From the NCBI RefSeq assembly GCF_001677475.2, contig NZ_CP015229.1: 64,000 nucleotides of DNA; one strand, given 5' to 3'. The notes under the pieces were generated by a model, which made no database searches, was not told the DNA's origin, and saw nothing but the letters and a program-made list of their open reading frames with translations. Origin of the DNA: Escherichia coli. Lineage in GTDB: Bacteria > Pseudomonadota > Gammaproteobacteria > Enterobacterales > Enterobacteriaceae. Positions 6,704-48,616 of this stretch are shown in pieces (within the stretch, counting starts at the first letter, position 1; the number at the start of each line of letters is the position of its first letter). Both the position numbers and the translations under genes were made by a program.

Positions 6704-6872
6704 ATCCAGCTTGCAATGAAAATAACGCCCGCCTAATATGTGCGCGTTTTGTTATTCCACAAACTGCAAGGAGGTAAATCATGACAAATCCTTTATCAAT
6801 GACTCTTTGCAGACCTTTCCAGGATTAATTCTTTTTTTTCTTGCCCTGGATCCGTCTGCCATTTCCTGATTT

Positions 6873-7008
6873 TTATATTTATATACTCTAAATAATTCGA
6901 GTTGTAGGAAGGCGACAAGCGAGTGAATCCCTAGGAGCTTACGAAAGTAAGTGACTGGGGTGAACGAACGCAGTCGTAGTACATGCAACTTGAAGTATGA
7001 CGAGTATA
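6873..7008. repeat. ERIC/IRU element (enterobacterial repetitive intergenic consensus), copy 1
   Basis: Contains GTGAATCCCTAGGAGCTTAC and AAGTAAGTGACTGGGGTGAACG, matching the ERIC primer sites; imperfect palindrome; second copy at 25753-25880. Confidence 0.85.
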
Positions 7009-7009
7009 A

Positions 7010-16664: not shown

Positions 16665-16740
16665 GCCGATATAGCTCAGTTGGTAGAGCAGCGCATTCGT
16701 AATGCGAAGGTCGTAGGTTCGACTCCTATTATCGGCACCA
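16665..16740 (+). tRNA. thrW: tRNA-Thr (anticodon CGU)
   Basis: 76 nt GCCGATATAGCTCAGTTGGTAGAGCAGCGCATTCGTAATGCGAAGGTCGTAGGTTCGACTCCTATTATCGGCACCA; cloverleaf with CGT anticodon and encoded CCA end. Confidence 0.95.
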
Positions 16741-16754
16741 TTTAAATCAATAAG

Positions 16755-17021
16755 TTACACATCATTAGTACCTTCCTTATTTCTTGACTGGGACAAATTT
16801 GGGACCGATGGGTTCAGAATCGAGTCTATTTGCCGTGCGTGTTCGGTAAGGTGATTAGGTGCGAGGTGAGCATATCGACGAACCATTTCAAGAGTTTCCC
16901 ATCCTCCCATTTCTGTAAGTGCAAGAAGAGAAACACTGGACTGAACCAGCCTGCTTGCCTTTGCTATCAAAGTACCTTGAGGACCAGATGATTTCTGGCG
17001 ATATTTACAGCGCGTCCGCAA
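16755..17021 (-). pseudogene. Tyrosine-recombinase (phage/P4-type integrase) C-terminal remnant
   Basis: Only about 50 C-terminal residues are integrase-like ([34 protein letters not shown], with the catalytic Tyr region); no N-terminal or core domains upstream; adjacent to the tRNA attachment site. Confidence 0.65.
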
Positions 17022-17107
17022 TGAGTTTTTCTCCGTGCCGCCAGTGACGTTCCCCGCTTTTTCAGTGCGGCGATAATATCAGCGGGATGCCAGTCCTGTT
17101 GTGTCAT
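16966..17107 (-). pseudogene. Ner/Nlp(SfsB)-like HTH regulator, 5' fragment fused to the integrase remnant
   Basis: Begins [24 protein letters not shown], matching the Ner/Nlp N-terminus as recalled, then diverges and stops after about 46 codons; a Ner-like segment (LIAKA) continues in the integrase-remnant frame. Confidence 0.45.
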
Positions 17108-17574
17108 ACAACCACCTCGCTGATAAATTTTACGCCGTCGGCGGTGCGCAGCCAGCGCGGGGCTTTGAGTCCTTCCATGAAATACCAGACCAGTTCACAC
17201 AACAGCCCGGTCAGGGTTTGTTCCGTTTTTGGTTCCGCCGGGCGTTCCAGCAGAAGCTGGAGTAGTGCGAGGCAGTATTCGCACAAGGAATCTGGTTCGG
17301 AAATAAAGTGCTCTGGTGTGGCGGGAAGGGTATCAACGGTCAGGCTTTCAATCAGATGCGGCGGGATGGGGTCGTGCAGCGTGGGGTGCAATAGCGCAAG
17401 AGCCGCGTGAAGCCGTCCGCAGAGCGCTAGCCGTAGCGCGGGATCGTCGGTTTCGATCAGGGTTTCGGCGAAGCGGGCGCAGTAATCGGCAAGGACAGTA
17501 AAATCCGTGGTGGCATTGAAGGGGGCGGACAGCAGATCGAGTAAATCGCAGTCAGGGGTGAGGGTTGTAGCCAT
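17104..17574 (-). CDS. Hypothetical protein, 156 aa, acidic and Leu-rich, no recognised domain
   Basis: ORF with an AGGAGA Shine-Dalgarno about 7 nt upstream of the ATG at 17574 (longest ORF starts at 17628); stop overlaps the ATG of the Ner-like fragment (ATGA); GC-rich relative to the neighbouring RT gene. Confidence 0.5.
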   Translation of the reverse strand: MATTLTPDCDLLDLLSAPFNATTDFTVLADYCARFAETLIETDDPALRLALCGRLHAALALLHPTLHDPIPPHLIESLTVDTLPATPEHFISEPDSLCEYCLALLQLLLERPAEPKTEQTLTGLLCELVWYFMEGLKAPRWLRTADGVKFISEVVV

Positions 17575-17917
17575 AGGGCGTCTCCTGTAACGGTTTATTA
17601 TGTCCGCCACTAGAGAGGCTAATCTCATGGGGGGCGGAACCGGACGGGGTTAGCCTTACCGGCGTTACAGGAAACCGGCGCGTCTTGCGACGCCCCCGCC
17701 CGGCCCGCCATTGAGGTGTAGCCGAACGCACGACACAAAAAAGACGCTGGTGCGTCAAGTGTCGCCTGTAACGGTTTTCAGGAGGCTAATCCCGACGCCT
17801 GATTTTGCAGGCGCGGGAGAAAGATACTGCGATTGGTCATGAGTGGCAAGGGCTACATCCTGTTTACCGACATCTCACGCAAAAATACCCTGATTATTAA
17901 TAGCGAAAATCAGTTTC

Positions 17918-20900
17918 TTATTTTGGCGGTAGCTTTTTGCGGTTCTTTGCCAATTGGAATCCTTCAGGTAACGGTTTGAATTTATCGCCGCCTTTAGGCC
18001 AGCGTTTTGCCCTGCTCTGAAATGCCCTTAACGAGTCGATATCCAGTGTTGCAGCGATCACAAAGTCATTATCGCCGCCCTTCACACGAGCAATATCACG
18101 CATAAAGGGTTCTTTTGCCGGGGAACGTACGCGACTATCGCCGTATTTTCGGTTATTCACTAAAATGGTATAGGCATGAATATCCAGCGCTGCTGATTCA
18201 ATCAACGATGCAAACGTATCCAGATCTTTATTCCAGCTCAATACCATTAATGCATCGAGCGCGCCCTGAAAACGGATCCTCGCTTTACTATTCTGGAGTT
18301 CAGAGCAAATCATAACGCCAAAATTGACGCCGTGATGAATATATACCGGCTTACGTTGTTTAACATTAAGTGTCGAGTCCCAAGACTTACCATAAGTTGA
18401 AAATAATGCCTCATCTTCACCTACGGCGGGTTCCAGCTTGGGTTGCCATATTTTGACACTCGCTGGATAGCCGAGTCTGTTATCTGAAAGGACAAGTACG
18501 GCCTCACTCTTCAGTTGATTATCGCCTAAGTGGCGGTATTCTGTTCCCGCAATTAGACTGATACCCGCCGAACTCAAACGATCAGCAATACTGTTAACCC
18601 AGCGTAACGGGATTGAAAGCTCGGGGAATAAAACATAATCAGGTTTAGGAGATAGTTTCAATGTTGCATTAACCAGTTCAGAAATCCGCTGGTACCTTGA
18701 ACGGGACAAGTTAGATTTATTGCAGGCCATTTTAGCCCAGTCGTCTTCCTCTGTTTTAATGCTGGTTAGCGCAACGACAATTTTATGTTTCCTGTCAGTG
18801 CCAATATGAATGAATTTCTTAGGCCGAGCTTTTTTTGTCGCTTCATCTGAGTCCTGCTCCGATGCTAGTAACGTCGGTTTGATCCATACACCGCGTAATG
18901 CTTGAGTATATTTTGCCCAAACGGTGGACGGTCTCTCATCTGGTTTTTTGTCGGATGTAGAGGGTAATCCAACACATTCGGGGGCCAGTTCTGATATTTC
19001 AGCGGGAGTTAAAGGACGTGTAGGGAAAATGTAAGGTAGGTAACTTTCGTTCTTACGATTTCCTTTAGCCACTTTTTCCAGTCGGGTATTCTTGGTTGAT
19101 TTCAAAAATAGCTTAATAACGTCAATATCAATAAGCGATGAGTCCCTCATTAATTTCAGTATTTTAACTTCTTTTTTACGATCACGCTGATTAACAAGTT
19201 TTTCTGCCGACTGACTCTTTACGATCTGTTTATAAGGTTCCTTTGCTAAATCAGCTCGAGCTACCAATGGCGCTTTTAAATAAAAATCTGCTGAATCAAA
19301 GCGAAGATCCAGTAAATCCTTTAGATTTGTCAGACTTTGTGAAATATGATTAAAAAATGTATCCGCAAGGCACTCTTCTTTCTTTGAACGTTTATCAAGA
19401 AATAATCTGTCAGGACTGTAATATCGTGTCGCTGCATCAACAAATAGCCAGCTTAATGTGCCTTTTATACAGCGCCAAAGATCATTTACTGCTCGAGTTT
19501 TGCAACCATTTATAGTCACTTCCTTACCTGAAGTAATCACCGATGCCAACAGGTTGATGGACTCGTAAGCTTTAAGTACAATTTTTTCCGCGTGCTGCCA
19601 TTCATTCATACTGATAGCAAAGCCAAGCAGCCTTGGCAGATAACTAAAATGTGCAAATAGATTATCAGCCCTAAGAATATGGTTGTAGGCAAACTGATAA
19701 AACTCTTCCCGCTGTTCTTTCCATTCACTTGGAGACAGATCTCGTGCCAGTGTTTCAACGTAGCGTAATTGCAGTGACCAGCCCAAACGACGAATGGTTA
19801 ATCCATCCGCACGGCGCAGAGTATCGGCATTTTCACCTACACTACCGGCAGCGGAAAGGACTTTAGCTGCGGTGGAGTGTTCCAGTTGATCCGGTGAAGG
19901 CATCAAGCGGTGTTCACTAGAAAGCTCGTAGATCTCCTTTTCGATACTGTCGAGCAGATCTATTCCTGCCCTCCCTTGAAGCACGAAAAGTTTTTGCTTA
20001 TCGGATTGTAACTGGATGGTGGTCTTACCCTGGAAATGCTCGCCCTGCTGTATTTGCCATATTTGTTTTTTCTCGTTTTTCAGATAAACGCAATCATTGC
20101 CAAGCCTATCTTGCAGCAATAACATAAATTCGTGATTATTAGTAATTTTACCTGTATCGCGTATTACAAGGAACATATCATCGACATAACGACCGTAGTG
20201 AATTGGCGACAGTTTTTCAATGACTAATTTATCCCAATGGTGTAGCAATATATTGGAAATGATCCGACTGGCTGTTAATCCAATGACCAGACCACCATTA
20301 ATAACAGGTGTTTTGTACGCTATTTTTTTTCCAAATGCCGCTGCGCCGTCAGACCAGTGCTTTAAGAATACAGCTAACTGTGCAGTAAACGCTTTTTCAT
20401 GCTCAGTCAGTTTTATGTTTAGTGTGTTATAGAGATCATCAGAGGTTATAGCCAGTGGATCAATAAAATGATAGTAACTTTTTAAATCCAGTGAGGCGGC
20501 GATAATGTCACGATCTTTTTCCAACTCGTCACGTATAGCTTTTAAGCCATCACCACGCCATTTTTGGTAGGGCTGGAAATAGGGGCTAAAAGAACCCACG
20601 GCACTGATATGGAATGGATTATCCTGCTCATTGCTAAATAATTCATCATTACGAATACGTTTTAGCCGCGCGCCATAACAACAGTTGTCTAAGCTGGCAT
20701 CAAATTTATGCCCGACCATATTAATCCATAGTGCAGAGATAATGTGACTATCAACCGGGAAGTCACCAATAATACGAAACTCTGGTATCAGATCAAAATT
20801 ATTAAATAAATGGTCGGCTGCTCGTTTAGGATTAGAAAAGTGGACGTGTCCATTTTGGAATTCATGTTTTTTCTTTGTGGTTAATTTTTTCGGTAACAAA

Positions 20901-21127
20901 CGAAATTTGCCAATCAACTTCTTATTGCTACTGAATCCATCTTCGCTCTGCAAAATATCTAAGAGTTCTTGCAGGTTTTCAATTAATTCCTGCTCATACT
21001 CGGCAAATTTGATAGCAACAGGAAATGTATTCTCAAAGAAGCTATCGGCTTTGGCTTTCCGGTAAGCGACCAGAAGGTCTTCAATCGTCAGATCATCCCA
21101 GCCAGTGAAAGTTGCCTGATATGTCAT
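17918..21127 (-). CDS. Reverse transcriptase fused to a C-terminal nitrilase (CN-hydrolase) domain; UG/Abi-type defence-associated RT (DRT type 1 / UG1-like architecture)
   Basis: 1069 aa. RT motifs: motif A ASLDLKSYYHFID, motif B GLVIGLTASRIISNILL, motif C YGRYVDDMFLV (about aa 310-320). C-terminal ~280 aa carry a nitrilase-like Glu/Cys pattern (VLFPELSIP ... GVMICSELQ). AT-rich gene in an island next to a tRNA. Confidence 0.85.
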   Translation of the reverse strand: MTYQATFTGWDDLTIEDLLVAYRKAKADSFFENTFPVAIKFAEYEQELIENLQELLDILQSEDGFSSNKKLIGKFRLLPKKLTTKKKHEFQNGHVHFSNPKRAADHLFNNFDLIPEFRIIGDFPVDSHIISALWINMVGHKFDASLDNCCYGARLKRIRNDELFSNEQDNPFHISAVGSFSPYFQPYQKWRGDGLKAIRDELEKDRDIIAASLDLKSYYHFIDPLAITSDDLYNTLNIKLTEHEKAFTAQLAVFLKHWSDGAAAFGKKIAYKTPVINGGLVIGLTASRIISNILLHHWDKLVIEKLSPIHYGRYVDDMFLVIRDTGKITNNHEFMLLLQDRLGNDCVYLKNEKKQIWQIQQGEHFQGKTTIQLQSDKQKLFVLQGRAGIDLLDSIEKEIYELSSEHRLMPSPDQLEHSTAAKVLSAAGSVGENADTLRRADGLTIRRLGWSLQLRYVETLARDLSPSEWKEQREEFYQFAYNHILRADNLFAHFSYLPRLLGFAISMNEWQHAEKIVLKAYESINLLASVITSGKEVTINGCKTRAVNDLWRCIKGTLSWLFVDAATRYYSPDRLFLDKRSKKEECLADTFFNHISQSLTNLKDLLDLRFDSADFYLKAPLVARADLAKEPYKQIVKSQSAEKLVNQRDRKKEVKILKLMRDSSLIDIDVIKLFLKSTKNTRLEKVAKGNRKNESYLPYIFPTRPLTPAEISELAPECVGLPSTSDKKPDERPSTVWAKYTQALRGVWIKPTLLASEQDSDEATKKARPKKFIHIGTDRKHKIVVALTSIKTEEDDWAKMACNKSNLSRSRYQRISELVNATLKLSPKPDYVLFPELSIPLRWVNSIADRLSSAGISLIAGTEYRHLGDNQLKSEAVLVLSDNRLGYPASVKIWQPKLEPAVGEDEALFSTYGKSWDSTLNVKQRKPVYIHHGVNFGVMICSELQNSKARIRFQGALDALMVLSWNKDLDTFASLIESAALDIHAYTILVNNRKYGDSRVRSPAKEPFMRDIARVKGGDNDFVIAATLDIDSLRAFQSRAKRWPKGGDKFKPLPEGFQLAKNRKKLPPK

Positions 21128-21422
21128 GCGTTATCGTCCTTAGATTAAAGTCTGTACAGAATTAGCCAGCCGTTTCATGCCCGAAGGAGGTGCTCTTGAC
21201 ACCAGTAATCCATCAGTGAGGCTGGCAATAATTTTGATTTGTATCCATGTTACACGCTCCCCGCAACCAGTCCGAGCATATATTTGTCACATTTTTCCCG
21301 AAAGTGATTAAGTTTGAATTTTTTGTTTAATGTCGATTTTTAGTCGACAAAATGAGGAATAAGTAAATTATTTCTTGCTGTGGCGTATCCCTGAACCTAC
21401 ACTGGTTTAAATATTTGTACTA

Positions 21423-22226
21423 ATGTCTATTCAGGGGCGACATTTGCCAAATTATCTAAACTGGCTGATGCAGAATACGCTACCCGGTCAGGTGCTGCTC
21501 CAGTCATGGCTTACCCGCAACGGCGTAGATCGTAAGCTCTCTTACCTCTATGTCCAGAATGGCTGGCTCAGGCGGATCGCTCACGGCGTATACTGCCGGA
21601 CGGGTCGTGAACCGGACTGGGTGGACGCGGTTTACTGCCTGCAAACACAGTGGGAAAAGCCAGTACGGGTGGCGGGGCTAACCAGCCTTGCGCTTCAGGG
21701 CCATGCGCACTATACCGAACCGGGTAAGCCGCAAATCTGGCTCGCGCTTCCGGCTTACGTCAAACTGCCGGGATGGTTTGCTGCCTTCGAACAATCTGCA
21801 ACATTTATCACGCTGTATACATCGGGCCTTACCGTTGATGTCACGTCATTTACTACGGAACTGAAAATTGGCGACCGGCAGTTAGCAGGCAGTGCCCCGG
21901 AACTGGCCGCGTATGAGATCGCCTGCGGCGTTCCTTCGTTGATATCGTTCGAACATGCCGATGCTCTGTTTCAGGGGATGAATCTTCTCAGCCCGCGTAA
22001 ATTGCAGGCGTTACTCTGCGCCAGTCATTCGGTTAAAACCAACCGGGTGATGCTTTACCTTGCCCGGCGTAATGGACACCCTTATTTTCAGTATATTGAT
22101 CAAAGCGGTATAGAAACAGGTACGGGAAAGCGGCAAATCATACCCGGCGGCTGGCTGGAGCCGGATTATCAAATTACTGTTCCACGCGAATTTAAACCGG
22201 AAGGAGTCGAAGATGGATCTGCGTGA
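21423..22226 (+). CDS. AbiEi-family antitoxin / transcriptional regulator (type IV TA, abortive infection)
   Basis: 267 aa; N-terminal winged-helix pattern (LTRNGVDRKLSYLYVQNGWLRRIAHGVYCRTG) typical of AbiEi; overlaps the downstream nucleotidyltransferase gene by 14 nt. Confidence 0.65.
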   Translation: MSIQGRHLPNYLNWLMQNTLPGQVLLQSWLTRNGVDRKLSYLYVQNGWLRRIAHGVYCRTGREPDWVDAVYCLQTQWEKPVRVAGLTSLALQGHAHYTEPGKPQIWLALPAYVKLPGWFAAFEQSATFITLYTSGLTVDVTSFTTELKIGDRQLAGSAPELAAYEIACGVPSLISFEHADALFQGMNLLSPRKLQALLCASHSVKTNRVMLYLARRNGHPYFQYIDQSGIETGTGKRQIIPGGWLEPDYQITVPREFKPEGVEDGSA

Positions 22227-23133
22227 TAGCTATACCCGGCAGGTCAAACTGTTGATGGCCGCTCTGCCGCATGTGGCGAAGGAGTCCTGTTTCGCGTTGA
22301 AAGGCGGCACGGCAATCAATTTGTTTGTGCAGGATTTTCCCCGTCTGTCGGTGGATATCGATCTGGCGTATAAGACTTTTGCGGATCGCGATACCGATTT
22401 GACGGCGATCAACGACGCTTTGAAGAGAATTACTGCATCGCTGAACAGTAAACCGGGGATTACCGCGATTCGGCAGGAAAATAAAACGGATGAAAAGCGC
22501 ATCATTGTGAATACGGCTGATGCCCAGATTAAGATCGAGGTTAGTCCGGTCTGGCGTGGGCTGTTGTTGCCTCCGGCAGAAATGTCGGTGTGCGAACGTG
22601 TGGAAATGGAGTATGGCTTCACCACTATGAGTGTCGTTTCGCTGGCGGATCTTTATGGCGGTAAAATCTGCGCAGCGCTTGATCGTCAGCACCCGCGCGA
22701 TCTGTTTGATGTGCTGAATATGCTGGAGAAACCGGGACTGATGCGGGAGATCTTTGACGGTTTTCTTTGTTATCTGGCAGGCCATCCCCGCCCCATTGCC
22801 GAGTTGCTGGCCCCAAACTGGGATACAGAGCGGATCACGACGCTGTATGCCCAGGAATTTTCGGGGATGACTCAGCAGGAAACGTCGCTGGAATCGCTGC
22901 TGTCAGTAACGACTTTGCTGCCGCAGGCGTTGAAGTCACATCTTACGGATCTGGATCGCGAGTTCTTGCTCAGTTTTAAGCAAAACAGCCCTGACTGGTC
23001 GCGGTATCGCTATCCTGAAATTCAGCATCTTCCGGCTATTCGCTGGAAGCAACGCAATCTGGCGGTGCTTAAAGATAAAAATCCGGCGAAGTATGTGGCG
23101 GCGGTGAATAAGCTAGAGAGGGTGCTGGAGTAA
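22213..23133 (+). CDS. AbiEii/AbiGii-family nucleotidyltransferase toxin (DUF1814)
   Basis: 306 aa; N-terminal LKGGTAINLF and DIDLAY motifs of the AbiEii nucleotidyltransferase fold; translationally coupled to the upstream AbiEi-like gene. Confidence 0.75.
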   Translation: MDLRDSYTRQVKLLMAALPHVAKESCFALKGGTAINLFVQDFPRLSVDIDLAYKTFADRDTDLTAINDALKRITASLNSKPGITAIRQENKTDEKRIIVNTADAQIKIEVSPVWRGLLLPPAEMSVCERVEMEYGFTTMSVVSLADLYGGKICAALDRQHPRDLFDVLNMLEKPGLMREIFDGFLCYLAGHPRPIAELLAPNWDTERITTLYAQEFSGMTQQETSLESLLSVTTLLPQALKSHLTDLDREFLLSFKQNSPDWSRYRYPEIQHLPAIRWKQRNLAVLKDKNPAKYVAAVNKLERVLE

Positions 23134-23538
23134 TATTCTTAGCGCTGTTCAGGGACTCTGAATTGGGCCATGATGCTTTGGTTATATGAATAACTTCGTG
23201 GCCATAACTCAAACATATTCATTTAATTCAATACATAGCACCATCGAGTAAGAGATCGCTGAGTCATTAGACGATCTCTGCTCGTGGAAATACGAAACTA
23301 TCTCTTTCCAAAGCTGATCTGAATAACATTATCTGGAGCATCATTATTAGACCTGATGATCTCATGCTCAATAAAATCCCCCCATTTCAAAAAAAGATCC
23401 CGTAATTTTTCCGCCTGCTGCCCGACCTGATAAGTTCTGATTAATCTGTCTTTCGGAACATGATTCAACAGAAGTTCTATAAGCCGTTCTGGCGCATCCA
23501 GATACTCAGCACAGCCTGTAGAGTGCAGGTGCAGACAT

Positions 23539-25701: not shown

Positions 25702-25752
25702 GGCTCATGATATAATTTTTAAGACATGATCAAGAAGCACGTTTATTTATTC

Positions 25753-25880
25753 ATATACTCTAAATAATTCAAGTTGCAGGAAGGCGACAAGTGAGTGAAT
25801 CCCCAGGAGCTTACAAAAGTAAGTGACTGGGGTGAATGAACGCAGTCGCAGCACATGCAACTTGAAGTATGACGAGTATA
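25753..25880. repeat. ERIC/IRU element, copy 2
   Basis: Over 90% identical by eye to the copy at 6873-7008 (GTGAATCCCCAGGAGCTTAC ... AAGTAAGTGACTGGGGTGAATG). Confidence 0.85.
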
Positions 25881-26031
25881 ATTATCATTATTATGGCCAT
25901 GGAATACCTGACAAATGACGCTACCCCAACCTTCTGTACCAGTCGTTCTGCTAATTCTACCGATGCTTCGGTCTGGAGTGGTAGAGTAATATTAGACACA
26001 GTTTTATTTTCTCTCTTTTTCGAGGGCTGTA

Positions 26032-26297
26032 TATGAACAGGAAGAATACATCCCTAAGCGGTTAATGCTGGCGTAATCAATAGACCAGCATTAATCACAG
26101 ATGATTATCAATCAGACAGAAATGGTTAAATCGTCGAATTCATAATTAATACTTTTTGTAACGCCGCTGAATAGCTTGAAAAGGATGTATATTTTAAATA
26201 TCAGTGAAGTGAACAGTTTATTGCCGTTATTAATAGAAATGGAGGAATAAATACGCGTATTCTACTATTGCAACAAAAACAACGATATTGATCATTT
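26032..26297. repeat. Intergenic repeat module, intact copy (two halves contiguous)
   Basis: First half matches 44674-44784 and second half matches 45478-45622 (for example TATTTTAAATATCAGTGAAGTGAACAGTTTATTGCCGTTATTAATAGAAATGGAG); contains an internal inverted repeat TTAATGCTGG...CCAGCATTAA. Confidence 0.7.
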
Positions 26298-26527
26298 TTC
26301 ATAATGAAGTAACCTGACAGATATAAAAATGTTGATTGAGGCTAAATGCCCGGATGAAGGTTGTCGAGGGAGCCAGGTTGTTTTTTCTTTTGGATGATCT
26401 CCATTGCTGGATAGTCCCCTTGTACAGATAAGTCTGCTCTTTCTCGCTCAAAGCAGACCCTGGAATTGAACGCAGAGTGACTACCTGACACAATATTGCA
26501 CCGTGAAGAGTCGGTCGTTGTTAACGT

Positions 26528-27412
26528 TCAGATTTTCAATGTATCAATGACCATCCGCAGAGCGGGGGAGACGTTGCGATGAGGGTAATAGAGAAACAAT
26601 CCCTCCATTCGCAGGCTGTAACGCTGCAACACTCTGATAAGCTTACCGTGTTCTAAATCATCCGCGACCAGTTCAACAGGAACATAGGCCAATCCGAGGC
26701 CCAGCCGGGCTGCTTCTGCTTCCATATAGCTGTCGGATAAGGCCCATTGCCCTTCAGGGCGATGAGTGATTTTTTTATCATCCTGATTGAGTTCCCACTG
26801 GTATACGCTGCCGTCGGCAAACTGATAGGCGATACAGGGATGCGCCTTTAAATCCGCCGGGGTTTGCGGAAAACCATAGCGACGAAAATGTTCCGGAGTC
26901 CCCACAATTGCCATCTCCATATCGGGCGTGATGCGTACCGCGACCATGCCCTGACCGACTTCAGGCCCCAGGCGGACACCTGCATCGAATCTTTCCTCGA
27001 TGATATCGACGAACCGGCTCTCATTTATCAGTTCAAGCCGGATATCAGGATATCGCTGTTTAAATACCGCCAGCTTTGGCAGCAGGCATTTATCAATCGC
27101 GTGCTGGCTGGCATTGATACGCACCGTGCCGGAGGGCGTCTCTCGATAGTGCGCCAGCGTGGCAAGCCCAAGATCTAACATTTCAAATCCAGATGCCGTC
27201 TTCTGGTAGAGCTGCTCGCCTGCTTGTGTCAGCGACAGTTTACGCGTGGTGCGCACTAGCAGCTGGACGCCCAGCCTTTCTTCAAGCTCGCGAACAGAAC
27301 GGCTGACTCCTGACTGAGCAAGACCCAGCCGCTGAGCTGCTGCGGTAAAGCTGCCTTCCCGCACCACCTGCATAAACAGGTACAGCTCGTTGTAGTTCTC
27401 CCTTTTCGCCAT
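26528..27412 (-). CDS. LysR-family transcriptional regulator (position of K-12 yagP)
   Basis: 294 aa, HTH (FTAAAQRLGLAQSGVSRSVRELE); divergent from a hydrolase/MFS gene pair. Confidence 0.85.
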   Translation of the reverse strand: MAKRENYNELYLFMQVVREGSFTAAAQRLGLAQSGVSRSVRELEERLGVQLLVRTTRKLSLTQAGEQLYQKTASGFEMLDLGLATLAHYRETPSGTVRINASQHAIDKCLLPKLAVFKQRYPDIRLELINESRFVDIIEERFDAGVRLGPEVGQGMVAVRITPDMEMAIVGTPEHFRRYGFPQTPADLKAHPCIAYQFADGSVYQWELNQDDKKITHRPEGQWALSDSYMEAEAARLGLGLAYVPVELVADDLEHGKLIRVLQRYSLRMEGLFLYYPHRNVSPALRMVIDTLKI

Positions 27413-42496: not shown

Positions 42497-43084
42497 TTAA
42501 CTGGTCCAGGTAGCGTCGAACTGTACGCTAACGTCGCCGCTCCAGATGCCTTCCGGTAGAGTGCTGTAATCGGTTACTGCGGTGGTACCATTGGTGGTGC
42601 CGCTGATGATGGAGAAGGTGAAACCATCCTGTGCGGTGGTACGATTGCTGGCATTGTAACCGTTAGCCAGCGGGCTAAGGTTGCCGCCCAGTACGCCGTT
42701 GGCGGTATCGATCATCACGGTATCGCCAGTTTTTTCGACTGCCGCGCCGTTATAATCCACGCCCACATTCAGTGTGGAACCTGAGGTATCCAACTGGGTT
42801 AATGTGTTGGTGATAAGACGTGAGGTCAGTTTAAAGGCGGTAGCCGTTGAGTCACCCTCGATAGCCACGTCAAATAGACCTTTCTGTGAGTTAAAACCTT
42901 TAATGCCTTCGGCATACTGGAACGCCAGGCTACCGAGTGGCGTCACAACCAGTTTACTGGTGGTGTCTTTTTTGGCTGTTGCCGACCAGGTCGCTACAGC
43001 CTGAGCTGTTACGTCAGCAGCCTGCGCCACACCCATGCCGGTAAACACCGTTACCAGAGCTATTGCCAGAACCTTTTTTTTCAT
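42497..43084 (-). CDS. ecpA: E. coli common pilus major pilin EcpA (MatB)
   Basis: 195 aa; [30 protein letters not shown]... recalled as EcpA. Confidence 0.9.
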
Positions 43085-43158
43085 TGCATTTCTTCCCGAG
43101 TTGAATTGAGGACGTGATGTCCCTGTGAGTCATTTTTTAAAACTAACTTGCCTGGAGT

Positions 43159-43770
<612 letters not shown>

Positions 43771-44150
43771 TTACAGGTGCATTCAGTTTCATTAGTAAAC
43801 CGGAAGTAAATAAGATACGTAGCACATATCAATAAAGGTTAAACGAGATTAAGTTTAATTATTTTCGATTGGGCTTAAATTTATGTTTTTTTCCCGATGA
43901 GTGTCAATATGTGAACGGAAAAGGAATTCAATGGTTAAGTCAATATTTAGAAAAACTGAAAATATTGCTTTTTTGATAAGAAGAAAAAGACATTTGGTTT
44001 CATAAGGTTATTGGCAATATAACGTTCATTTCTTACTTGCATTTTATATTGGTCAGGAATTTTGCCCTGAAGTGTTAGGAATAGTCTTAATGCGCTGTGT
44101 GATGGACTAGTAAAAAAACAAGTTTTAAGGGTAAGGGATAGAATATAAAA

Positions 44151-44378
44151 CTATGATGAGCTGCCATTGAAGATGATTTGCCAATCAGTAAGATATTTTA
44201 ATGGATTAACATGCCGCACAAAATGGTTATAGGTGTTCATTCCAATAAGTGATGGAAAATTGAACCGGGTTATGTACATCATCTGTTCGGTAAGCCCCCT
44301 AAGAGCCAAATTAAGTGAAGTTAAACGAAGGCTGCCAGCTGTCACAGGAACGATGGCCTTTTTGTCAGGGCACTGCAT
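44151..44378 (-). CDS. ykgL: Small hypothetical protein (YkgL-like)
   Basis: 75-aa ORF between ecpR and ykgO, where K-12 has ykgL; no domain recognised. Confidence 0.4.
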   Translation of the reverse strand: MQCPDKKAIVPVTAGSLRLTSLNLALRGLTEQMMYITRFNFPSLIGMNTYNHFVRHVNPLKYLTDWQIIFNGSSS

Positions 44379-44673
44379 TCAGTCATCTGTGCGCATTACT
44401 CTAACTGGCACTCGAACGTCGGCGATGGGGTTGCCGGTGGATCAGGCTGTTCCTGTGGCGTAAACGTTTTTATGTTAGTACCAACAGATTTACCACATTT
44501 ATCATCTTAACAGTTTGAGTGAAAATGCAGGCTGCGCCGCAAAGGGAGGAGACTGAGTGGCGTGTTCAGTCTAAAAGAGAGTTGATGCCAGCATACAGGG
44601 GCGAAGCTGGTCAACAAGTCAACATTAAGATAATGGAATATTCGGAGAGAAACGTCAGGCAGTTGGCCTCAAA

Positions 44674-44784
44674 TGAACAGGAAGAATATATCCCCAGGAA
44701 AATTAATGTTGGTGTTATAAACACACCAACATTAATCCGATCTGATTATTAATCAGACAAATATCGTTAATCCGTCGAATTTTG
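44674..44784. repeat. Intergenic repeat module, split copy, first half
   Basis: Matches 26032-26140 (ATGAACAGGAAGAATA...CCGTCGAATT); ykgO/ykgM follow directly. Confidence 0.7.
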
Positions 44785-44786
44785 AA

Positions 44787-44927
44787 TCAACGTTTTTTCT
44801 TACGACCCTGAACGGCCTTAAAACGTGGATTAGATTTACAAATCACATATAGCCGTCCTTTTCGCTTCACAATCTGACAGTCTGGATGGCGTTCTTTTGC
44901 GGTACGCAGAGAGTTAAGGACTTTCAT
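44787..44927 (-). CDS. ykgO: 50S ribosomal protein L36 paralogue, zinc-independent type
   Basis: 46 aa [46 protein letters not shown]; start overlaps the ykgM stop by 1 nt. Too short for the ORF track; found by manual translation. Confidence 0.9.
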
Positions 44928-45193
44928 CACGCCCCCTTTTTCGTGCTAACAAAACGACCAAAACGTTGGGTGAATCGTTCAACATTTCCTTCTGATGCCA
45001 CTGTTCTCAGCTTCCCTGTATAGAACGGGTGCGATTTAGAAGAGACATCAATTGTCACGTACGGATACGTTACGCCATCCAGCTCAATCTCCCGGTCTGT
45101 TTTGATAGTCGAGCCGATTTTAAAGTACTCATCAACACTGGTGTCGTGGAACACCACAGTACGATACTCAGGATGGATATTGGGTTTCATCAT
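44927..45193 (-). CDS. ykgM: 50S ribosomal protein L31 paralogue, type B (zinc-independent)
   Basis: 88 aa starting [19 protein letters not shown], no Cys zinc ribbon; Zur box immediately upstream. Confidence 0.92.
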
Positions 45194-45198
45194 TTTTA

Positions 45199-45221
45199 CC
45201 TGTTATGTTATAACATAACCG
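45199..45221 (-). promoter_or_regulatory. Zur box in the ykgM promoter
   Basis: Near-perfect palindrome TGTTATGTTATAACATAAC 6-28 bp upstream of the ykgM start. Confidence 0.85.
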
Positions 45222-45477
45222 TAAAGATACATGCTCATCCGGATCATTTCAACACCCAATCCCTGTGACCCTTTGTGGATGTGGAATTTCCGCAACGGGG
45301 AACTCTGGCATTGTTAGCAGCCATTGGTGACGCTCCCATAAACGCCTGGATGAGTGATTGATGATGGTTTTGCTGAGAGTATGGATTTTTCGAGAATGGA
45401 GGTTATCTCTACTTTACTGGCCGATGATTTATCGCAGTATGATTGATTACCTGACAGCGTGTATTCCTCTCCCACGG

Positions 45478-45622
45478 ATATAATAATTACTTACAAAAAG
45501 GGAGAGGATGCATATTTTAAATATCACTGAAGTGAACAGTTTATTGCCGTTATTAATAGAAATGGAGAAATAAATAGGCGTATTCTACAATTGCGACAAA
45601 AACAACGATATTAATCAGTTTA
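45478..45622. repeat. Intergenic repeat module, split copy, second half
   Basis: Matches 26141-26297 (TATTTTAAATATCACTGAAGTGAACAGTTTATTGCCGTTATTAATAGAAATGGAG...AACAACGATATT). Confidence 0.7.
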
Positions 45623-46135
45623 TGACTGATTTGTTGTACTTTATTCTCTTTCATTGGTACTTCCTCGCTTTAAAAAAGAGTGCACTTCGTAAGTGCCCTT
45701 ATATAAATAACGAGTTTGGTCAACCAATTTTTTGACATGTATCACAAATTTGAATAGATGTATTACATCAACTATCTTTTATTGCACCAACGTCATTGAT
45801 ATATGTCGCCTGAAGTCAGTTCCGGGAATGAGTCTGATCTCAAGATTGGCCCAGTCCTGGCGTTGATTGGCGCTGAGGAGCATATCGCATCTCATCATAA
45901 TGTCGTATCTCCTGGGGTGTTATACAAGATATCGTTGTTGGTGACCTGGGAGAGGAATTGAGTTCTATTAAACCGTCAACTATGCCGGATACATACTGGA
46001 TTACACTGCAGGCACGCCTTATGAGAGAACGTGCCGCAGTGACGGGTTAATTATCTGAAAGAATTTGTGAGGCTGTATCGGTTACTCATTGATTTGATAG
46101 TTTTACTCTCGGGAGAGTAATAGATATTTAATCCA

Positions 46136-46379
46136 TTAACGGAAACCAGTGAGTTCCTTTCGATGTCTGAATTTCCTTGGCGTGACATAGGTATATCCTG
46201 TAATTACTAAACCAATATTTTGTGAGCGACGTTTATAATATTCGAGTTCTTGCTCAGAGATGGTTCCATCAGGATTAGCTGACCAGGTCGTCATAGGAGC
46301 CATAACGATACGATTACATGGCTTTGTTTTTTTCTGTCAGCATAAAAGGAGGAAACAGTGATAAGTGTTTATTTGTCAT
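46136..46379 (-). pseudogene. Old-yellow-enzyme/NADH:flavin oxidoreductase family N-terminal remnant (frameshifted, truncated)
   Basis: Manual translation gives MTNKHLSLFPPFML... then, after a frame change, MAPMTTWSANPDGTISEQELEYYKRRSQNIGLVITGYTYV, resembling the OYE N-terminus (xMAPMT...EYY...GLIIT); stop after about 55 codons. Confidence 0.35.
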
Positions 46380-46672
46380 GACAATACCTCAAATGTTTAT
46401 CTGATTTTGATGCGTATATTTTAACTGGTTAGTTGTTACCAGCTTTGGAACCAAGATTTTTGGCTTTGTTTTTATTTATAATTACTGTTAGTGCTTTTAT
46501 TGAATTTATGGTGGAGAAAAGAGTAAAAAAAGAAAGTTAATGATGTGTGTCAGAATATCGGTAAGAAGAATGACGCAATCGTGAGGATACGTTTATTCAT
46601 AATAAATCTCCTGAAAGTTTAGAATTATTTTCTATACAGCCAGATTATCATTGTTACTAATAATGTGGTTAA

Positions 46673-48616
<1,944 letters not shown>

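Follow-up and report, generated by a model that had tools for sequence, protein, structure and literature searches.

The window, i.e., the whole 64,000-nucleotide stretch of Escherichia coli DNA analyzed here, contains two related segments on the minus strand. In one of them, two blocks of repeated sequence adjoin each other; in the other, the blocks are separated by the ribosomal protein genes ykgM and ykgO. The locus raises the question of whether a ykgM-ykgO cassette was dropped into a copy of the repeat, as the original prediction implied, or whether the shorter segment has lost what the longer one still holds. We call the shorter segment copy A and the longer one copy B. Copy A is very probably an old, decayed second copy of a ykgR-ykgM-ykgO unit whose middle was lost by deletion, and it does not owe its shape to a cassette insertion. 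The operon ykgM-ykgO (rpmE2-rpmJ2) is reportedly repressed by Zur, and its products are said to be the zinc-independent "C-minus" paralogues of L31 and L36 (work of Makarova in 2001 and Panina in 2003).

Extent and junctions of the two-part repeat

A two-part direct repeat, its parts 18.6 to 19.3 kb apart, was confirmed by BLAST and by a repeat finder. The right block pairs 26182-26298 with 45505-45621 (109 of 117 positions identical, 93%; E = 3e-39), and the left block pairs 26033-26182 with 44673-44823 at about 74% identity over about 150 nt (E from about 1e-21 to 3e-27). Both outer edges are sharp: at 26033/44673 and at 26298/45621 the in-register identity drops from 8-10 of 10 positions to 0-4 of 10. 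The earlier proposal that 44674-45622 is the full counterpart of 26032-26297 agrees with these edges within 1 nt. Chance similarity or an assembly artefact, for which only the AT-richness of the region would speak, has practically no probability, given the E-values of 3e-39 and 3e-27 and a two-copy layout that recurs in hundreds of complete E. coli genomes and in 24 metagenome contigs.

The inner junctions were taken from a spliced dynamic-programming alignment of copy A against 44673-45621 with one free gap. The best split (score 172) places the junction at 26181/26182 in copy A, the end of the left block of copy B at 44822/44823 and the start of its right block at 45505/45506, leaving 682 bp (44823-45504) that are present in copy B and missing from copy A; in the window, the position is ambiguous by only 1 nt. 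The original prediction had the first half end at 44784, 2 bp short of the ykgO stop codon, and the second half resume at 45478, about 255 bp past the Zur box. A split near 44784-5/45474-8 scores only 148. The left block instead runs through the stop codon and for another 36 nt to 44822/44823, and the right block starts at 45505, 27 nt later than proposed; this point is 285 bp past the Zur-box palindrome, and 48 nt separate it from the ykgR stop codon upstream. When copy A was aligned pairwise with the whole of copy B in plain MAFFT, the gap was misplaced, and the spurious result, similar to the 45478 junction, was discarded.

The extension past the ykgO stop codon into the gene is ungapped, in register and of the same identity as the flank. 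The window's relic matches 44787-44822 at 24 of 36 positions (binomial p = 2.6e-7), the consensus of the A copies matches at 27 of 36, and the stop codons themselves align, TAA in copy A with the TGA of ykgO in copy B. Neither inner junction falls on a gene or operon boundary, the left one lying inside ykgO and the right one in the spacer near ykgR. It was correctly foreseen that ykgM-ykgO lies in a stretch absent from the other copy, since ykgO, ykgM and the palindrome are all found between the two blocks. The base-level alignment nevertheless places the junctions off the boundaries of the cassette, an outcome that the original prediction had itself named as refuting it, and contrary to the picture of a ykgM-ykgO cassette nested in a repeat. 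An insertion signature or short duplicated sequence, for which the junctions were the proposed place to look, did not appear either: in the junction alignment and an inverted-repeat search, the ends of the 682 bp showed no target-site duplication and no terminal repeats.

The intact module, its counterpart in copy A and their setting

Copy A sits between thrW and the pao genes, about 19 kb from copy B (Table 1). From thrW to ykgR the window is collinear with E. coli O145:H28 at 96-97.6% identity. The LysR and hydrolase genes that flank copy A and those that flank copy B are distant paralogues with amino acid identities of only 42% and 33%, and a larger duplication around the two copies was rejected on this ground. 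An Rfam search of both loci returned no match except the ERIC element. As side observations on the region, the pepD-phoE core genes of the window have their best match to complete E. coli genomes at 98.7%, and the pao-ecp region is flanked by two direct repeats with a common 40-bp identical core.

Table 1. Features of the two copies and their surroundings in the window
Feature	Position	Strand	Evidence or remark
thrW (tRNA-Thr)	16665-16740		
Island after thrW, ~6.7 kb			Then LysR, SDR and hypothetical gene
ERIC element	25742-25881		Before copy A
Copy A, very probably a decayed second ykgR-ykgM-ykgO copy, 266 bp	26033-26298	minus	Internal deletion and truncation inside ykgR
Counterpart of region downstream of ykgO	26033-26145	minus	~75% identical to 44673-44786
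Large hairpin TTAATGCTGG...CCAGCATTAA in copy A	26062-26094		Kept by RNA fold
Relic of last 11-12 ykgO (type B L36) codons and stop	26146-26181	minus	FQAIQRRYKKY* in window
Putative deletion junction in copy A	26181-26182		
48-nt tract near-identical to copy B	26182-26229	minus	
ykgR relic, codons 12-33 and stop	26230-26298	minus	NF041474 profile positions 12-33, 46.9 bits
LysR gene beyond copy A	26528-27412	minus	Then alpha/beta hydrolase, MFS transporter
Genes onward to copy B			paoDCBA, yagU, ykgJ, ecpEDCBA, ecpR, then ykgL, ykgO, ykgM, ykgR (copy B)
Copy B, part homologous to copy A plus 682 bp that copy A is without	44673-45621	minus	BLAST, spliced alignment, edges
Region downstream of ykgO, three hairpins	44673-44786	minus	RNA fold -37.9 kcal/mol, z = -5.1
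ykgO (rpmJ2), type B ribosomal protein L36, 46 aa	44787-44927	minus	NF002021 91 bits (cutoff 70); PF00444
682 bp absent from copy A	44823-45504		105 nt of ykgO, all of ykgM, Zur palindrome and promoter, 285 bp of ykgM-ykgR spacer
ykgM (rpmE2), type B ribosomal protein L31	44927-45193	minus	NF002462 123.8 bits (cutoff 86); PF01197
18-bp perfect palindrome GTTATGTTATAACATAAC at Zur-box position	45202-45219		Inverted-repeat search
48 nt below ykgR stop, partner of probably converted tract in copy A	45505-45552	minus	
ykgR, small membrane protein, 33 aa	45553-45654	minus	NF041474 78.1 bits (cutoff 40); RefSeq annotation
ykgR upstream region, in module, absent from copy A	45655-45780	minus	Conserved in E. 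marmotae and E. albertii

By its sequence, copy B is a working, standard Zur-repressed operon. Its ykgM and ykgO stand in tandem with a 1-nt overlap, the operon is 98-99% identical to that of E. coli and the ykgO product 100% identical to E. coli YkgO. The palindrome lies immediately downstream of the -10-like hexamer of the ykgM promoter, whose promoter-like sequence TTGAAA-17-TATCTT is found at 45252-45224 on the minus strand. The last of the hairpins downstream of ykgO, a 16-bp stem (~44702-44736) followed by UUUUCC on the minus strand, is likely the ykgMO terminator as judged from the predicted fold. Copy B thus resembles the Zur-repressed ykgM-ykgO system in every respect considered, i.e., type B L31 and L36, a YkgM sequence with no cysteine and a predicted Zur box overlapping the promoter, whereas copy A has only the last 12 ykgO codons. 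The same contrast holds for ykgR (NF041474), for which copy B encodes the full protein and copy A covers profile positions 12-33 only; the part of the copy B ykgR that recurs in copy A is confined to codons 12-33.

On the minus strand, copy A translates as PFQAIQRRYKKY* (asterisk, stop codon), which aligns with the 12-residue C-terminus of YkgO. Other A copies, from E. coli genomes and metagenomes, carry a better-preserved ykgO relic, PFQAVQRRKK(K/T)Y*, and three of the metagenome copies have 9 extra nt (GAAAAGCAG) at the junction. Downstream of the relic, the large hairpin is kept but the U tract is not. The ykgR relic is cut at codon 11/12 and is without codons 1-11, the Shine-Dalgarno sequence/ribosome-binding site and the promoter; in E. 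coli, its RefSeq annotation is that of a ykgR pseudogene without the N-terminal part. Our analysis accounts for this annotation and adds an unannotated ykgO relic beside the pseudogene. Copy A holds no 33-aa open reading frame (ORF) with a start codon that would make a full-length YkgR, and, of the ykgM-ykgO operon, it has 36 nt of ykgO left, no ykgM and no Zur box. A 21-codon ORF at 26230-26295 (MINIVVFVAIVEYAYLFLHFY), opened in the window by an L-to-M change, is almost certainly incidental; an in-frame TGA stands two codons upstream of its ATG, and in place of the ATG most A copies carry CTG or CCG.

The trio of ykgR, ykgM and ykgO is also found in E. marmotae and E. albertii, where it is 80-85% identical to copy B. 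The homology of the E. albertii trio to copy B begins at 44673 (11 of 15 matches, vs 5 of 15 in the preceding 15 nt), which is the left edge of the A/B repeat, and on the other side it reaches about 45780. Between 45655 and about 45780, each 20-nt window has 14-20 matches to E. marmotae and E. albertii, with the exception of 11 of 20 in E. albertii at 45680-45699. What is repeated is an entire module of about 1.1 kb, from ykgR through ykgM and ykgO to the terminator, with the two half-repeats as its ends. The location of the module differs: the E. marmotae trio has the same right-hand context as in E. coli (LysR, aldo-keto reductases) with different left-hand neighbors, and the E. albertii trio lies elsewhere, next to csiD-lhgO-gabDTP. 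In Klebsiella and in contigs with more distant YkgM relatives, ykgMO adjoins ylaC-maa-hha-tomB-acrB, and no ykgR was found next to it there.

Polarity of the change and occurrence of copy A

The two copies differ because copy A lost sequence, not because copy B gained it. The C-terminus of YkgO, ending in (K/R)R, is conserved in other genera; copy B is therefore the intact state, copy A holds the remnant of a real gene, and such a C-terminus cannot arise by an insertion that happened to land beside a look-alike sequence. The 682 bp, moreover, is not a functional unit, with one end 36 nt into ykgO and the other in the ykgM-ykgR spacer. The opposite reading takes copy A as an ancestral empty site and copy B as the product of a ykgM-ykgO cassette inserted into A-like sequence. 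It can point to the 682 bp that copy B holds and copy A is without, and to the different sites at which ykgMO is found in different genera and species, but we consider it extremely unlikely. Its left junction would lie inside ykgO, and the supposed empty site retains 12 ykgO codons with an aligned stop, i.e., sequence derived from the cassette itself, of which the YkgO C-terminus is ancestral across genera; copy A also retains a ykgR fragment without a start codon. At the ends of the 682 bp there is neither a target duplication nor a terminal repeat, and in E. albertii and E. marmotae the module runs through both "junctions" without a break.

Under the deletion from copy A, the ancestral unit would have spanned the equivalent of 44673 to about 45780 and would have comprised ykgR, the spacer, the Zur-controlled ykgM-ykgO operon and the terminator hairpins. 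An internal deletion of about 673-682 bp, probably by slipped mispairing or illegitimate recombination as far as can be inferred, would have taken ykgO codons 1-35, ykgM, the promoter with the Zur box and most of the spacer; the copy would also have been cut off inside ykgR at codon 11/12, and the distances discussed below suggest that a patch beside the junction was recently homogenized with copy B by gene conversion. The breakpoints coincide with a direct repeat, CTTAAAA (44817-23) vs CTTACAAAAA (45490-99), only if the junction variant with the 9 extra nt is used; the repeat is imperfect and the signal weak. It would fit slipped mispairing with a second slippage of 9 nt thereafter, but is no more than suggestive. 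Please note that the microhomology at the deletion ends was judged on copy B as a proxy, which is about 25% diverged and is not the true progenitor of copy A.

Of 5426 complete E. coli genomes, about 770 carry A-type sequence, defined as at least 95% identical to the copy A of the window, and in 612 of these it covers at least 80% of the query; K-12 is without copy A. The ykgMO genes are missing from roughly 350 of the complete genomes. We examined 27 A copies, namely that of the window, those of two E. coli genomes (L001 and L082) and 24 from gut and food metagenome loci retrieved with an A-specific 27-mer. The deletion is common to all 27, and tblastn found no ykgM or ykgO in any of these loci. 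Among the best-ranked A-type matches listed for the complete E. coli genomes, all are single unbroken pieces with the same deleted structure. The state before the deletion is reconstructed rather than observed, since neither the A-type matches examined in E. coli genomes and metagenomes nor the LysR loci described next yielded an intact A-type module. A scan for the LysR gene beside copy A gave 78 loci, with LysR up to 98% identical and none with ykgM, ykgO or ykgR nearby, and the DNA homology in these loci ends about 90 bp past the LysR stop codon. Some E. coli genomes have a second ykgM, which was considered as an intact A-type module and rejected; in the three records where it was located, it is an unrelated ykgM-only paralogue with 81% nucleotide identity, and in the one examined in detail it adjoins urease genes. 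In the literature on ykgR and the ykgM-ykgO region, we found no description of the copy A relic.

Age, decay and possible relocation

How old is copy A? In the noncoding part of the left block, copies A and B differ at 21 of 84 positions, a distance close to those from A to E. marmotae (19/84) and E. albertii (22/83), from B to E. marmotae (23/84) and E. albertii (28/83), and between the latter two species (20/88). The tree of the four is close to a star, with A no faster than B. Since the A-B distance is like those between species, copy A is as old as the species divergence. In the hairpin stem GCTGGCG...CCAGC, copy A has the state of E. marmotae and E. albertii, and copy B has a compensated change from C-G to T-A. 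These comparisons mark copy A as either an old paralogue or a sequence imported from a related lineage; they do not fit recent copying from B.

The ykgR codons carry a second record. Over the 22 codons, five differences are fixed between A and B, all synonymous and none nonsynonymous; outgroup comparison assigns three of them to the A stem as derived changes and one to the B stem, and leaves the fifth ambiguous. Within the A copies, by comparison, the ykgR relic has seven nonsynonymous substitutions and one synonymous. This contrast is significant (Fisher p = 0.0047, resting on 13 substitutions), and the ancestral A peptide that we infer is identical to YkgR residues 12-33. The 5:0 ratio among the fixed differences vs 7:1 within A suggests that selection maintained a ykgR in copy A over much of its history and that decay set in at about the time of the deletion and truncation. 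Over the 69 coding nt, A differs from B at 7 positions and from E. marmotae at 7.

The 48-nt tract next to the junction behaves differently. The A consensus and B differ there at 1 of 48 positions, as compared with 21/84 and 9/36 in the left blocks; B differs from E. marmotae at 12/48 and from E. albertii at 15/46, the overall range to other species being 12-16/48, and eight informative sites in the tract group A with B. It is probably a short patch of recent gene conversion, a reading that comes from one tract. The difference between the 74% and 93% halves of the repeat would then be explained by past purifying selection on the YkgR peptide together with the 48-nt converted tract.

A recent local duplication, in which copy A arose from B inside the E. 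coli lineage and, being unconstrained, diverged rapidly afterwards, would accommodate several of these facts: in the noncoding part of the left block, A and B agree, against E. marmotae and E. albertii, in a 5-nt indel state and at three of four informative sites; hardly any difference separates them in the 48-nt tract; and the copies lie 19 kb apart in direct orientation. We regard it as unlikely, however. Copy A is no further from the outgroups than copy B (19/84 vs 23/84; 22/83 vs 28/83), i.e., it did not evolve faster; it retains the ancestral hairpin stem where B changed; the A stem, with three derived synonymous changes and no nonsynonymous one, points to a long time in function; and the flanking genes, at 42% and 33%, are only distant paralogues. 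Less probable still, indeed very improbable, is that the 93% half is kept by present selection, not by conversion, whether on a 21-aa YkgR-like peptide, on a plus-strand ORF or on an RNA. The L-to-M change in the window does supply an ATG to the ykgR relic, and a plus-strand 21-codon ORF (45508-45573/26185-26250) has a strong Shine-Dalgarno sequence, GGGAGAGG, in copy B. But most copies of the ykgR relic are without a start codon, and the 7 nonsynonymous vs 1 synonymous changes within A speak against a selected peptide; between species the 48 nt differ by 25-33%, with no sign of conservation, and they give no Rfam match and fold no better than random. The ATG of the plus-strand ORF is lost in many A copies and the ORF is frameshifted in one B copy (L089). 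With its start lost, a frameshift and the tract free to vary, this ORF was rejected as the cause of the conservation.

Copy A is hence best described as an old second copy shortened by deletion, and on its sequence we regard it as a non-functional relic, in which the ykgR and ykgO remnants are accumulating amino-acid-changing substitutions. It is like other enterobacterial pseudogene relics of duplicated or acquired segments in its deletion, truncation, relaxed selection and patchy presence, and it differs from them in its retained structured hairpin and in a tract probably homogenized with the intact partner. The reading of a ribosomal-paralogue cassette dropped into a repeat is corrected to one of ordinary gene decay, and E. 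coli would once have had two copies of the ykgR-ykgM-ykgO unit. The practical value is modest, and the outcome would be no surprise to a specialist.

A mildly interesting point is that ykgR-ykgM-ykgO behaves as if it were a relocatable unit within Escherichia, the zinc-sparing L31/L36 paralogues traveling with ykgR as one unit whose sites differ among sister species. At least four module sites can be named, i.e., beside ecp and, as a relic, on the thrW side in E. coli, at csiD-gab in E. albertii, and in the other left-hand neighborhood in E. marmotae. With mobile gene cassettes (integron, MITE- or IS-bounded), the module shares a reproducible end, at 44673, and different sites in three Escherichia species; it differs in that no attC-like site, integrase, transposase, terminal inverted repeats at the shared ends or target-site duplications were seen, and the 682 bp missing from copy A is not the unit. 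That the module of about 1.1 kb is a discrete unit relocated repeatedly within Escherichia by an unrecognized mechanism, with copy A as a fossil landing, is a speculative and rather doubtful idea. Its end is fixed at 44673 in three contexts, and the module carries no mobility gene. As a minor observation on the module boundary, ykgL is an ORF that straddles it.

Deletion junction and variation among A copies

Both endpoints of the deletion that shortened copy A (the decayed second copy of the ykgR-ykgM-ykgO module) fall at the base of a potential hairpin in the intact copy B: AATCAACGTTTT/AAAACGTGGATT within the ykgO 3' end (window 44785-44831) and TCCTCTCCC/GGGAGAGGA downstream of ykgR (window 45465-45508). 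Secondary structure may have favored the deletion. Three metagenome A copies (L116, L117, and L124) carry a 9-nt indel polymorphism, GAAAAGCAG, exactly on the deletion junction. Unrelated sequence replaces the first 34 nt in five other A copies (L101, L102, L107, L110, and L118), and in some complete E. coli genomes the match to copy A likewise begins only at about window 26066, adjoining an AbiEii toxin gene.

Repeats around and between the two copies

The ykgR-proximal parts of the two copies form direct repeats (26182-26298 and 45505-45621) which have a 40-bp identical core in common and flank a 19-kb pao-yagU-ykgJ-ecp-ykgMO segment. Recombination between these direct repeats could lead to the loss of the whole segment; ykgMO is missing from ~350 complete E. 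coli genomes. Two other repeats are listed in the table. One copy of an ERIC-type intergenic repeat is on the left of copy A, ~150 bp away; its match to V_AS5 in Rfam is weak and sub-threshold. A 16-nt inverted repeat has its left arm ~90 nt beyond the end (44673) that the modules share, and one position of this arm differs in K-12 according to the alignment (TAAAAGAGGGTTGATG). The inverted repeat is possibly a chance occurrence.

Features in and around the two module copies (window coordinates)
Feature	Coordinates	Strand	Remark
thrW (tRNA-Thr)	16665-16740		
1069-aa ORF	17918-21127	-	inside the ~6.7-kb segment beside thrW
ERIC-type intergenic repeat, two copies	25742-25881; 6870-7009		140 nt, 92% identical
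LysR regulator adjoining copy A	26528-27412	-	related loci L004-L007
16-nt inverted repeat, TAAAAGAGAGTTGATG / CATCAACTATCTTTTA	44572-44587; 45766-45781		15/16 complementary; brackets the module region
ykgL	44525-44752	+	annotated ORF; extends across the module end (44673)
21-codon ORF, MHILNITEVNSLLPLLIEMEK	45508-45573; 26185-26250	+	antisense to the ykgR 3' end

ykgL and a small ORF antisense to ykgR

The first 148 nt of ykgL are specific to their context, and the final 80 nt fall within the ykgO terminator hairpins; a search of the ykgL product against protein families matched no family. In E. coli O145:H28, ykgL is annotated with a frameshift, and the alignment places a 1-nt indel in its reading frame in copy A. 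We consider it probable that ykgL is either a spurious ORF or one of very recent origin. The 21-codon ORF on the plus strand, preceded by GGGAGAGG in copy B, is not conserved, since its ATG is changed to ATA in many A copies, it is frameshifted in locus L089, and between species its sequence varies freely.

Flanks of the copies and a third ykgM

The protein of the LysR regulator beside copy A is 95-98% identical to those encoded in Citrobacter amalonaticus, Kluyvera, Klebsiella spallanzanii, and Serratia marcescens, which is far above what species divergence allows, so this LysR block probably moved laterally and recently; the DNA homology stops ~90 bp beyond the stop codon. Further to the left, ~6.7 kb directly downstream of thrW, a known integration site for islands, is missing in E. 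coli O145:H28 (window 16758-23526). On the copy B side, window 43000-47800 corresponds to 8.7 kb of another E. coli record, in four pieces, and comparison of window 45700-46700 with other E. coli indicated that the window lacks ~3.9 kb in the stretch from ykgR to a LysR gene (46700-47635). An NADH-dependent flavin oxidoreductase is left in this interval as fragments only, e.g., 46136-46303, and the interval apparently lacks the alpha/beta hydrolase as well as one LysR gene. A third Escherichia ykgM, without ykgO, was found in E. coli pB39_V (L083, 5002-5265), flanked by a hok/gef gene and ureG, with 81% identity in nucleotides and 91% in protein; the same match is also present in an O157:H7 EDL933 record.
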